Shown here: piece by piece, positions 10,141 to 13,400 of the stretch
How the letters are laid out: each line of letters opens with the position of its first letter
How positions within the stretch are numbered: the stretch's first letter is position 1
Assembly: GCA_011526565.1 (NCBI GenBank)
Contig: WYBL01000026.1
Coordinates: 103,928 to 167,927, forward strand
DNA: 64,000 nt
Source: Acidobacteriota bacterium
Lineage (GTDB): Bacteria > Acidobacteriota > Vicinamibacteria > Fen-336
Reading direction: 5' to 3'
Position numbers and translations under genes: made by a program
Notes under the pieces: generated by a model
Seen by the model: only the letters and a program-made list of their open reading frames with translations
The model's database searches: none
What the model was told of the DNA's origin: nothing

Positions 10141-11364
10141 TCAGCTCTCGGTGAAGCGGCGCACGCGCTCGTTGCGGAAGTCCCCGGCGATCAGCGCGTG
10201 GACCTCGGGCATGCGCTCGGGATCGATCGAGACGTGGGGGTCGGCGATCGTCGTCTTGGGCATCAGCACGCCCTCGCGGTAGAGCAGGTCGATCGCGTCC
10301 TTGGCGATGCCCTTCTCGTGGTCCGCGACGCCACGGAAGACGTTGTCCTCGTGGGTGTGGGCGCCGCCGATCTTGCCCTTGGACACCAGCTTGCGCAGCA
10401 TCTGGCGGATCACCCGCCGTTTCGGGTTGGGGTCGGCCGCGATCGTGCTCGGGTGGTCGGGCGGCAGGCTCGCGTCTGCTTCCGCCTCGTCGTCGTCCGC
10501 GTCGCCTTCGTCGGCCTCGATCGCCGCGCCGGCCTCGGCGGCGGCCGCCTTCTCGGCCTCGTCGATCGCGAGCGCCCGCTCCAGCTTGCGGCGCAGGTGC
10601 TCGTTCTCCTTCTCGGCGCGTCGCAGCTTCTTCTCGAGGTCGGCGAGGCGCTCCTCCGACGGCGCGGCCGGCGCGGCGGCCGCCACCGCGCCCACGGCCT
10701 CCTGCAGCCGCTTCTCGAACCTCGCGCGCTCGGAGCGCAGCTCGTGGTTCTCGCGGCGCAGCTTCTTGAGCTCGTCGCGCAGCTCCTGCAGGCGGTCGCG
10801 CTCGCTCTCCAGGTGTTTCTTCAGGTCCTCGGCGTCGGCGGCCCAGTCCTCGAGCTCGTCCGCGGTCCGGCTCTGCTCGTCGAGCACGGCCTCGACGAAG
10901 TCCCAGGTCGGCGGCACGCAGGCGGGCGAGCGGCGGTAGGCGCCTACGCACTCCTCGGCCAGCCGCGGAAAGGCCTTGCGCACGTCCTTCTGGCTGGACA
11001 GGGCCGCGTTCCACAGCGCCTCGAGCGGCCGGTCCGGCGCCATCTGCTCCAGCTCGTCGAGGCTCGCGTCGCGGTCCCAGCCGAGCCGGTCGTGCAGCGC
11101 CTGCAGCACGCCGTAGCCCCAGTCCAGCGAGCGCTCGATCAGCGAGGCGCCCATCGAGGCCCACACCTCGGGCGGCAGCTCGGCGGCCTCGCGCTTCGGG
11201 AAGTTGGGCTTGACCAGCCGGCGCAGCGAGTCGAGCGGCAGCGTGCCGCGCACCAGCGTCTGCACTGCGCGTTCCTTCGACAGGCGAGCCACCGCCTCGT
11301 TCAGGACGTTGTCAGGAGGCAACGGGCGCCGCTTCTCGTCGCGGGCCGATTCCTGGGCGCTCAC
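10141..11364 (-). CDS. Hypothetical protein with a central charged coiled-coil
   Basis: There is a long, well-composed ORF. It has a heptad-like acidic/basic segment (LKKHLESERDRLQELRDELKKLRRENHELRSERARFEKRLQ). The C-terminus is KIGGAHTHEDNVFRGVADHEKGIAKDAIDLLYREGVL. No family was recognised. Confidence 0.55.
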   Translation of the reverse strand: MSAQESARDEKRRPLPPDNVLNEAVARLSKERAVQTLVRGTLPLDSLRRLVKPNFPKREAAELPPEVWASMGASLIERSLDWGYGVLQALHDRLGWDRDASLDELEQMAPDRPLEALWNAALSSQKDVRKAFPRLAEECVGAYRRSPACVPPTWDFVEAVLDEQSRTADELEDWAADAEDLKKHLESERDRLQELRDELKKLRRENHELRSERARFEKRLQEAVGAVAAAAPAAPSEERLADLEKKLRRAEKENEHLRRKLERALAIDEAEKAAAAEAGAAIEADEGDADDDEAEADASLPPDHPSTIAADPNPKRRVIRQMLRKLVSKGKIGGAHTHEDNVFRGVADHEKGIAKDAIDLLYREGVLMPKTTIADPHVSIDPERMPEVHALIAGDFRNERVRRFTES

Positions 11365-11427
11365 CGCTCCAGTCTAGCAAGCGCGCGGCGATTCGCCCGC
11401 CCGGCGGAGCGATACAATGACGGGACC

Positions 11428-11664
11428 ATGAGCGACATCAAGATCACCGTGCGCAACAACGGGCCGCTGCGGCTCGAGGGCAACATGACGATCGTCGACG
11501 CGGACGGCAACGCCTACGGGCTGGCCGGCCGGAGCGTCGTCTCGCTGTGTCGCTGCGGGCACTCGGCCAACAAGCCGTTCTGCGACGGCGCCCACAACCG
11601 GCAGGGCTTCGCCTCGGAGTGCAGGGCTTTCGAGCTGCCGCCGCCGGCGGCGCCGAAGGCCTGA
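11428..11664 (+). CDS. CDGSH-type iron-sulfur domain protein
   Basis: SLCRCGHSANKPFCDGAHNRQGF is the CDGSH motif. There is an ATG at 11428. A TACAAT hexamer lies 9 nt upstream. Confidence 0.8.
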   Translation: MSDIKITVRNNGPLRLEGNMTIVDADGNAYGLAGRSVVSLCRCGHSANKPFCDGAHNRQGFASECRAFELPPPAAPKA

Positions 11665-11722
11665 GAGGACGGCGCTGAACCGCCGGACGACCCGCGGGCT
11701 GCAACTCGCGGTCGCCCTGCTG

Positions 11723-12169
11723 GTGGCGTTCGCCGGCCTTGCCGGCGACGCGTTCTCGCGCTGGTTCGGCTCGGCGCCTGCGGCCGAGCCGCGGGTGGCG
11801 ACGGTCCCCGCGCCGGGCCCGGGAGGCGCGGGCGCCGAAGCGAAGGAGTCGACGCCCGACGCCTCGCCGGCGCTCGCTTCCGTCGGCGACGCCCGGCGCG
11901 ATCGACAGATCGCCGGCGTCGTGGCGGCGATGGACCGCACGGGCCGGCCGCCCGAAGGCGTCGCCCAGGGCGGGAGGCGCGGGGGACAGCGCGGCCTGTT
12001 CGAGAACGCCGAGGGCCGGCTGCCGCGCCGGCCCCGCGGCTACTACGTCGAGAGCGACGTCTGGCCGCGCGGTCCCGGGGGCCGCGGCGCCGAGCGGCTG
12101 GTCTTCGGCCGCGAGGGCGAGGTGTACTACACCAGCGACCACTACGATTCGTTCACGAGGTTGCGCTGA
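11723..12169 (+). CDS. Barnase-family (microbial RNase N1/T1/Sa-like) ribonuclease, probably secreted. The start may be an upstream in-frame CTG at 11675, which would add an RR-containing signal peptide.
   Basis: The C-terminal half, FENAEGRLPRRPRGYYVESDVWPRGPGGRGAERLVFGREGEVYYTSDHYDSFTRLR, parallels barnase ...FSNREGKLP...RILYSSDWLIYKTTDHYQTFTKIR. Confidence 0.7.
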   Translation: MAFAGLAGDAFSRWFGSAPAAEPRVATVPAPGPGGAGAEAKESTPDASPALASVGDARRDRQIAGVVAAMDRTGRPPEGVAQGGRRGGQRGLFENAEGRLPRRPRGYYVESDVWPRGPGGRGAERLVFGREGEVYYTSDHYDSFTRLR

Positions 12170-12588
12170 TGGCGGACTGGGTCGACCTGCACGAGGACTG
12201 GCCGGACCTGCGCGGCACCTTCCTGCACGCGTGGCCCGAGGCGGAGGTCGGCGCGCTGCGGGCGCGGCTGGAAGCGCGGGGCTTCCGCACGCTCTACGTC
12301 GACACCCGCGAGGGGAGCTTCCTCGACGGCCTGGCGGCGGGCCTGGGACGCGCGCGCGGCCCCGGGCTCGACGCCGCCAACGACCTGCTGCTCGACTGGG
12401 CGGGGCTCGACCGCGCGCCGCGCGCGGTGGTGTGGAGCGGCGCCGACGCCCTGGCCGCCCGCGACGCCCAGGCCTGTCTCGACGCCCTCTGGCTGCTCGA
12501 GGCGCTGGTCCCCTCCGACTACGCCGAGCCGCAGTGCGAGGTGTTCGTCGCGGGCGCGGGGCCCGCCTACCTCCGCCGCAGCACGTAG
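12169..12588 (+). CDS. Barstar-like ribonuclease inhibitor (immunity protein), start-coupled to the RNase gene (TGATG)
   Basis: It lies immediately downstream of the barnase-like gene with a 1-nt stop/start overlap. It is acidic, with CLDALWLLEAL resembling the barstar DALWD segment. The size (139 aa) is larger than barstar. Confidence 0.55.
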   Translation: MADWVDLHEDWPDLRGTFLHAWPEAEVGALRARLEARGFRTLYVDTREGSFLDGLAAGLGRARGPGLDAANDLLLDWAGLDRAPRAVVWSGADALAARDAQACLDALWLLEALVPSDYAEPQCEVFVAGAGPAYLRRST

Positions 12589-13400
12589 AAGGGGCGGCGG
12601 CGACCGCTCGCCTCGGTCGGGGCGAAGTCGGCGGCGACGTAGCCGCGGCCGAGGTACGCCGAGAGTGCGACCCGCACCTTGCGCTGCCAGTCGGAGGCGA
12701 CCCGCGGCGCGGCGGAGCTGAGCACGTCCCAGTCGGGCGGGATCTCGAGCAGCAGCGACTCGGCCTCGAGTTCCGTGCTGGGCTCGGAGGAGACCGGCCA
12801 GCCCGCCTTCCACACGACCTCGTTGACCGGCTCGCCGTCCGGGGTCGCGACGCTGCGCGGCAGTTCGCCGGCCGCGGCGCGCTCGCGGACCCGCTCGGAG
12901 TCCAGGTCCCAGCGCACGACCAGGCGGTCGGTGGGCAGCCCGTGATGCAGCGACGAGGTCGTGATGCCGTACATGTCGGGCACGAACTCCGGCGCGACGG
13001 CGCCGAGCCGGCGCAGGTTGAGGTTGGCGTTGCGCGCCTGGAGCGGGTCGAAGGTCCAGGTCACGAAGGACAGGCCGCGGGCCAGCGCTTCGTCGCGCTG
13101 CGCCCACTTGAGACGCGCTCCGATGCCCTGCGCCTGGCGGTTGGGCAGCACCGCCAGCATGTCGGAGTGCAGGTGCGGCACGCCGCCCTTGATCGCGGGG
13201 AACGCGTAGCAGAAGCCCACCGCGCGCCCGTCTGCGCCCTCGGCGAGGTGCACGATCCCGCCCGCGTGCACGGTGGCGATCAACTGGATCGCCGAGGTGA
13301 TCTCGAGGTCGTGCAGGCCCCACACGGCGCGCTGCAACTCGACGCACGCGTCGTAGTCGGCCCGCGACCCCGCGGGCCGGATGCGGATCTCTTCGCTCAT
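12567..13400 (-). CDS. GNAT-family N-acetyltransferase with C-terminal extension
   Basis: ATG start at MSEEIRIRPA. The acetyl-CoA motif region is VHLAEGADGRAVGFCYAFP...RQAQGIGARLKWAQRDEALARGLSFVTWTFDPL. Confidence 0.7.
   Translation of the reverse strand: MSEEIRIRPAGSRADYDACVELQRAVWGLHDLEITSAIQLIATVHAGGIVHLAEGADGRAVGFCYAFPAIKGGVPHLHSDMLAVLPNRQAQGIGARLKWAQRDEALARGLSFVTWTFDPLQARNANLNLRRLGAVAPEFVPDMYGITTSSLHHGLPTDRLVVRWDLDSERVRERAAAGELPRSVATPDGEPVNEVVWKAGWPVSSEPSTELEAESLLLEIPPDWDVLSSAAPRVASDWQRKVRVALSAYLGRGYVAADFAPTEASGRRRPFYVLRRR

Follow-up and report, generated by a model that had tools for sequence, protein, structure and literature searches.

A ribonuclease and barstar-like inhibitor gene pair with a probable CTG start codon in an Acidobacteriota contig

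A barnase-like ribonuclease (RNase) gene and a putative inhibitor gene lie next to each other in the window analysed here, by which we mean a 64,000-nucleotide stretch of contig WYBL01000026.1 from an Acidobacteriota bacterium of the class Vicinamibacteria (GenBank assembly GCA_011526565.1). The G+C content of the window is 73%. The first open reading frame of the pair (ORF1), on the plus strand, encodes the RNase, and its stop codon ends at position 12169. Its first canonical start codon is GTG 11723, and the frame is open upstream back to a stop codon at 11486; a scan of this frame from 11486 to GTG 11723 for ATG, GTG and TTG found none. A CTG codon at 11675 lies in the same frame, and translation from it gives LNRRTTRGLQLAVALLVAFAGLA. 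The second open reading frame (ORF2), which encodes the putative inhibitor, begins in the string TGATG, where the RNase stop codon and the ORF2 start codon have one base in common. A first-pass annotation, made from the sequence alone, had pointed out this overlap, which is read here as a predicted translational coupling of the two genes. Residue numbers of the RNase given below count from the CTG codon, and the coordinates of all features are collected in Table 1.

ORF1 almost certainly encodes a member of the N1/T1 family, the family of barnase and RNase Sa, in agreement with the first-pass annotation. Its match to PF00545 scored 49.4 bits (E 7e-13, profile positions 37-97 of 98), twice the gathering cut-off of 24. 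HMMER searches matched ORF1 to 53 distinct PDB sequences, comprising RNase Sa, Sa2, Sa3, barnase and binase; the closest was RNase Sa2 (1py3, E 3.8e-10), and 1mgr was matched at E 2.1e-9. The number of RNase homologues found was 217. The barnase-like string on which the first-pass annotation had relied needs a partial correction: the C-terminal portion, TSDHYDSFTRLR, is present in ORF1, but the portion given as REG.LP reads NAEGRLP in the window, while many homologues have NREGRLP and barnase has REGKLP.

The catalytic residues are retained. E113, E126, R137, R141, H156 and Y157 align to E41, E54, R65, R69, H85 and Y86 of RNase Sa, and the same six correspond to E60, E73, R83, R87, H102 and Y103 of barnase. 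Alignments with RNase Sa2, Sa3 and binase show the catalytic Glu and His, which had been singled out for checking, to be kept, as are the two Arg. With the PF00545 match above its cut-off as well, neither of the two outcomes named in the first-pass annotation as overturning its reading was seen. In a 21-sequence alignment E126, R137, R141, H156 and Y157 were invariant, whereas E113 was not; the window RNase has both guanine-loop residues, N111 and E113. By this alignment, E113 is predicted to bind guanine, E126 to act as the general base, R137 and R141 to bind phosphate, and H156 to act as the general acid. ORF1 is predicted to have guanyl-specific endoribonuclease activity.

The RNase precursor is built of three parts: a predicted signal or anchor, then some 40 residues of Pro/Ala-rich linker, then the catalytic domain, which is 99 residues long. 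The AlphaFold model had a mean predicted local distance difference test (pLDDT) score of 62 over the whole chain; inside the domain, block means ran from 35 to 89. The moderate overall score is due to the disorder of residues 21-62, where the pLDDT was below 50. The domain begins with a helix at residues 73-89 that is followed by strands, as in the alpha+beta fold of the family. When the domain model was searched with Foldseek, all of the top 50 matches were RNase Sa2, Sa3, barnase or binase, at probabilities of 0.98-1.00 and target-normalised template modelling (TM) scores of 0.42-0.58. The domain is strongly basic, with an isoelectric point (pI) of 10.4. The ratio of non-synonymous to synonymous substitution rates (dN/dS) of the domain was 0.13-0.18 against five relatives, which indicates purifying selection. 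Against two related loci, L005 and L029, the linker gave a dN/dS of about 1, and it also differs from the L005 linker by an indel.

ORF2 is very probably a diverged inhibitor of the barstar family, an assignment drawn from profile comparison and gene position. Some searches made with ORF2 on its own gave nothing that would identify it: the NCBIfam profiles gave no match, phmmer against PDB sequences gave chance matches only and no barstar, and a word-indexed homologue search returned two close relatives only. The neighbours of the RNase orthologues are more informative. In other contigs, RNase orthologues of 52-60% identity are directly followed by PF01337 (Barstar) genes of 144-172 amino acids, and ORF2 aligned over its full length with the PF01337 gene of one of them (L008) at 29% identity (BLASTP, E 4e-9). 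An exhaustive hidden Markov model (HMM) search of 1.84 billion representatives found only ORF2's own cluster and 27 weak matches; ten of the 27 were scanned, and all ten scored 43-80 bits on PF01337. In hhalign, the ORF2 clade aligned with 24 Pfam-verified PF01337 proteins over columns 1-137 at a probability of 99.7% (E 4e-27). A joint family profile, searched against the PDB, matched barstar chains alone at E below 0.2.

The alignments locate the barstar motif. Imm-Barstar is defined by a DxxxD motif (Zhang et al. 2012, PMC3482391), and its counterpart in ORF2 is LDAAND; D68 and D72 of this segment do not vary across 35 sequences and fall on D35 and D39 of barstar. W77, W89 and E111 of ORF2 correspond to barstar W44, W53 and E76. 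The first-pass annotation had relied on a barstar-like DALW segment, which lies at residues 105-108. The string is real but is not the counterpart of barstar D35-A-L-W38; in the alignments it falls in the wrong register and is a chance match. When the ORF2 clade was compared by hhalign with Bacillus barstar alone, the LDALW segment was all that aligned, at a probability of 1.2%.

The ORF2 protein is acidic, as had been noted earlier, with a pI of 4.54 (4.66 for barstar, as against 10.4 for the RNase domain) and with 22 Asp and Glu against 13 Lys and Arg. Its dN/dS of 0.09-0.26 indicates purifying selection. The AlphaFold2 model is of high confidence (pLDDT 90, predicted TM score 0.86) and has the strand and helix order of barstar with an extra N-terminal beta-alpha unit at residues 19-36, a unit that is common to the whole family of 144-amino-acid inhibitors. 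Foldseek matched the model to barstar 1x1w_D at a probability of 0.95 and a target-normalised TM score of 0.66, but the top-scoring matches were generic AAA+-type alpha/beta domains. One residue sets the window apart from its relatives: C103 (12475-12477), in the helix-4 equivalent of ORF2, is unique to the window, with Leu at this position in L001 and Phe in L028, L005, L007 and L029.

Read from CTG 11675, the RNase has an N-terminus with three Arg residues followed by an uncharged stretch of 14-17 residues that ends in G-L-A and aligns with VLA or GLA in relatives; a helix is modelled at residues 6-20. A basic and hydrophobic N-terminus of this kind is present in 99 of 120 homologues. Most of the other 21 miss the strict filter just by the length of the uncharged run, and about ten are without such a segment, these being the window's clade and gene calls that seem truncated or fragmentary. 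The first-pass annotation had stressed an RR-containing signal. The RR is present, but it is not a twin-arginine translocation (Tat) motif and it is not conserved: N-R-R-T-T-R-G has no hydrophobic pair after the RR as the Tat consensus requires, and orthologues begin with MKGLRL, MKRKLG or MTRKL. Because the RR is unconserved and lacks the Tat hydrophobic pair, export of Sec type or a signal anchor is probably more likely than Tat export. The hydrophobic stretch closes with a conserved G/V-L-A, which would be compatible with cleavage by signal peptidase.

Translation of the RNase probably initiates at CTG 11675 and not at GTG 11723. The first-pass annotation had raised the non-canonical CTG start as a means to acquire a signal peptide, and comparison favours it in the Shine-Dalgarno (SD) sequence, in conservation and in the N-termini of homologues. 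The 7-mer class GAGRGGA, to which the SD-like sequence before the CTG belongs, is rare, with only 10 occurrences in 128 kb (both strands of the window). SD-like 4-mers at a spacing of 4-10 nt are found at 8% of positions. L001-L003, L028 and L005, which amount to four distinct sequences besides the window, retain the CTG, its SD and the 16 codons of extension between CTG 11675 and GTG 11723. In the sister clade (L007, a Vicinamibacteria metagenome-assembled genome, and L029), a GTG start with its own SD lies a few codons from the equivalent place and gives MKGLRLAAVVLVALAVLAG (MKGLRL...).

Other near-cognate codons were considered and rejected as starts (ACG 11669 and 11687; CTG 11699, 11717 and 11720), with no SD at a workable distance where this was checked. 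ACG 11669 abuts the SD itself, and CTG 11717 and CTG 11720 lie inside the hydrophobic core. A truncated call was seen in the L010 orthologue (contig_94608 of ERZ25039459, positions 877-904): its public gene call, P0025, starts at an internal GTG and loses the signal peptide, while 27 nt further upstream an unused GTG in the same frame gives MRRKLGALLVVAAGLL. Loss of the N-terminus at the hands of gene callers therefore extends beyond the CTG clade.

From the assignments of the two proteins we consider it likely, at a probability of roughly 85%, that the locus is a chromosomal two-gene module of the barnase/barstar type, made up of a guanyl-specific RNase and a barstar-type inhibitor. Several points count against this reading of the pair and its start. 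The direct match of ORF2 to the Pfam Barstar profile PF01337 reached 17.8 bits (E 0.0032, residues 51-112), below the cut-off of 23.4; the earlier description of ORF2 as barstar-like was right as to the family, by gene position, the exhaustive HMM search and hhalign, but was not carried by this direct profile match. The aromatic residues Y29 and W38 of barstar are replaced in ORF2 (G64 and N71), and there is a two-residue deletion before the motif. The loss of these aromatics together with the deletion before DxxxD accounts for the miss by Pfam. The lack of Y29 and W38 equivalents also means that binding of the RNase by ORF2 is not guaranteed. CTG starts are rare in bacteria, and CTG 11675, though well supported by comparison, is a probable start.

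If the RNase started at GTG 11723 it would have no export signal and the pair would be an intracellular toxin-antitoxin-like module. GTG 11723 is indeed canonical and the first such start in the ORF, and the automatic gene calls in relatives (P0001-P0003) take it. We regard this start as unlikely, however, since no SD-like motif precedes GTG 11723 (nor is there one before ACG 11687 or CTG 11699) and since the codon sits in the middle of a conserved hydrophobic segment, of which it leaves MAFAGLAG only. The mean Kyte-Doolittle hydrophobicity over 12 residues is 1.12 for the GTG version as compared with 2.77 for the CTG version. The 16 codons upstream of the GTG have a G+C content at third codon positions of 0.93, a coding value that is the same as in the remainder of the RNase gene, and between the window and L005 they differ by three synonymous changes and one non-synonymous change. 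Full signals are also made from canonical starts in the sister lineages. Another alternative is that the start codon has been lost in the window's lineage, with the RNase barely or never made and the inhibitor left as an orphan immunity gene. The missing canonical start at the expected position would fit such a loss, as would the low efficiency of CUG, for which initiation in E. coli is about 1-2% of the AUG level (10.1101/063800). This is quite improbable given that the RNase domain is under purifying selection within the CTG clade (dN/dS 0.17 against L028 and 0.135 against L005), that the catalytic residues are all intact and that five sequences retain the CTG together with its SD and the extension.

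Two further explanations were considered. ORF2 could be an acidic alpha/beta protein unrelated to barstar, such as a degenerate P-loop or AAA+-like domain, and no RNase inhibitor. Against this stand the full-length hhalign match to verified barstars, the PF01337 genes that hold the same position after orthologous RNases, and the invariant DxxxD motif; the ORF2 sequence is without a Walker A motif, and its structural matches have 9-18% identity in a generic three-layer alpha/beta sandwich. The proposal is accordingly very improbable. The RNase frame, which is open from position 11489 on, is the +1 frame with respect to the upstream gene for a CDGSH iron-sulfur protein, and a +1 frameshift from that gene would yield a CDGSH-RNase fusion with no initiation at CTG. 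Such a fusion is hardly credible: in the sister clade the RNase starts independently at a GTG that is served by its own SD and stands 20 nt past a TAA stop, the overlap region is without a slippery or stimulatory feature, and a cytoplasmic Fe-S domain ahead of a signal sequence would be functionally senseless.

With the barnase/barstar-type module and the CTG start as the preferred reading, a mechanism can be outlined. The RNase would probably leave the cytoplasm through the Sec pathway and reach the periplasm or a site beyond it. The inhibitor would stay in the cytoplasm, where, as in other members of its family, its DxxxD helix would plug the active site of the RNase and guard the RNA of the producer against RNase that folds before export. 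Because CUG is a weak start and the inhibitor gene has an ATG, preceded by a GAGG that scored as an SD, synthesis of the toxin might be held well below that of the inhibitor, which is speculation. More tentatively still, the sub-lineage may have fixed the CTG with a strong SD on the toxin and the ATG on the inhibitor as a hard-wired toxin-limiting device, with the long-form barstar, given its additional beta-alpha unit and its missing Y29 and W38 equivalents, binding through an interface partly unlike that of classical barstar; we think this combination possible but doubtful.

The two genes stay together in the relatives. The order CDGSH gene, RNase, inhibitor and a convergent GNAT-like gene is kept in relatives down to 66% RNase identity, and the CDGSH-RNase-inhibitor order is found in L001-L007 and L029. 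The one-base overlap of the RNase and the inhibitor is also present in L001, L005, L007, L028 and L029, and gaps of 4-14 nt separate the two genes in distant pairs. The RNase and the inhibitor are adjacent in all related loci examined, and distant RNase-barstar pairs lie in different neighbourhoods. The maintenance of the pair across differing neighbourhoods therefore marks the two genes as a functional unit. The nearest genome among the GTDB representatives is a Vicinamibacteria metagenome-assembled genome (66% identity), which was the sole close genome in the contig scan.

Upstream, the CDGSH gene is probably co-transcribed with the RNase gene, as only 10 nt lie between its stop codon and CTG 11675. 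An orthologue of this gene is recorded as PF09360 (zf-CDGSH) in a precomputed table; a Pfam scan of the window's own 78-residue CDGSH protein gave no zf-CDGSH match. A conserved GATACAATG at 11410-11418, about 12-20 nt upstream of the CDGSH ATG, could be a -10 element. A promoter and terminator scan of 11200-12900 returned nothing. Divergent to the CDGSH gene, on the minus strand at 10141-11364, a protein of 407 amino acids with a long central coiled coil is encoded and is syntenic in all close relatives. No Pfam family matched it above threshold, and weak coiled-coil matches to ZapB, LmuB and JetC are noise. On the other side, a GNAT-type acetyltransferase-like gene (12567-13400, minus strand; PF00583, 25.3 bits) runs towards the inhibitor gene and covers the final 22 nt of it, an overlap that recurs in L001, L005 and L007. 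The flanks consist of housekeeping genes, which encode sugar-nucleotide enzymes, a TonB-dependent receptor and a GcvT-like protein. Neither the RNase nor the inhibitor gene was matched to a defence system by PADLOC, and nothing of relevance came out of searches of the entire window for Rfam families, tRNA genes and tandem repeats.

Table 1. Features of the RNase-inhibitor locus, in window coordinates.
Feature	Coordinates	Strand	Basis
CDGSH iron-sulfur protein gene, 78 amino acids	11430..11664	+	ORF; CRCGHS...CDGAH motif in translation
Shine-Dalgarno-like GAGAGGA, 5 nt before CTG 11675	11663..11669	+	Sequence; GAGGGGA in L005
RNase gene, proposed full length, 164 codons and stop, CTG start	11675..12169	+	PF00545, PDB, homologue and Foldseek matches
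Predicted N-terminal export signal or membrane anchor, residues 1-24: basic NRRTTR, then hydrophobic LQLAVALLVAFAGLA	11675..11746	+	Model helix, hydrophobicity, homologues
GTG, first canonical start, probably internal Val17 codon	11723..11725	+	No upstream SD; middle of hydrophobic segment
Pro/Ala-rich disordered linker, residues 25-65	11747..11869	+	pLDDT, dN/dS
Catalytic RNase domain, residues 66-164	11870..12166	+	HMMER alignments, dN/dS
Codons of predicted general base E126 and general acid H156	12050..12052; 12140..12142	+	Alignment to 1py3, 1mgr, 4haa
GAGG Shine-Dalgarno of inhibitor gene, 8 nt before ATG, within RNase coding sequence	12157..12160	+	Sequence
TGATG stop/start overlap	12167..12171	+	Same overlap in relatives
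Predicted barstar-family inhibitor gene (ORF2), long form, 139 amino acids, acidic, ATG start	12169..12588	+	Homology and position
D68-A-A-N-D72, DxxxD motif of predicted RNase-binding helix	12370..12384	+	Alignment to barstar D35...D39
DALW string, ORF2 residues 105-108, in helix matching barstar helix 4	12481..12492	+	Not homologous to barstar D35-W38

The module is of a type already known and is in most respects ordinary; its one unusual feature is an RNase that probably starts at a weak CTG codon. The locus is a conserved example of such a probable start in a high-GC bacterium. It is also a case in which gene callers cut the export signal of the RNase, not only in the window's lineage but in at least one relative (L010), and in which Pfam leaves the inhibitor unannotated, to appear as a hypothetical protein in public records. 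The diverged barstar clade, which is beyond the reach of Pfam, widens the sequence range of the family. The understanding of barnase/barstar systems is unchanged by either point.

Among known systems, the RNases Sa, Sa2 and Sa3 of Streptomyces aureofaciens are the best matches of the window RNase in both sequence and fold, taking Foldseek ranks 1-6, and they share its catalytic set. As in the window system, the host has a high G+C content and the inhibitor is larger than Bacillus barstar; the enzyme is exported, as is predicted for the window RNase. Barstar-like inhibitors of the S. aureofaciens RNases, SaI14 and SaI20, were reportedly described by Krajcikova and co-workers in 1998. The window RNase differs from this group in several ways. 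Its domain identity with them is only about 30-35%, an AQGGRRGGQR insertion precedes the guanine-binding loop, and a 40-residue Pro/Ala linker stands between the signal and the domain. Its host is an acidobacterium with an outer membrane, and its start codon is apparently CTG.

Barnase and barstar of Bacillus amyloliquefaciens (1brs, 1x1w) combine a secreted basic RNase with an acidic cytoplasmic inhibitor, the combination that is predicted here, and barnase E73, R83, R87 and H102 are conserved in the window RNase. In contrast with barstar, the window inhibitor carries about 45 additional N-terminal residues that form a beta-alpha unit, and it lacks the Y29 and W38 equivalents. The genes of barnase and barstar in B. 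amyloliquefaciens are not known to lie in one operon, whereas those in the window are adjacent and overlapping.

A wider frame is given by the work of Zhang et al. (2012, PMC3482391). The window pair has none of the RHS or filamentous repeats, secretion-system domains or cassette arrays of polymorphic toxins and lies in a syntenic housekeeping neighbourhood, but it has the toxin-then-immunity order and the DxxxD motif of the Tox-Barnase/Imm-Barstar pairs. The same work describes "simple barnase-barstar gene pairs" as widespread and reports Imm-Barstar from Acidobacteria.

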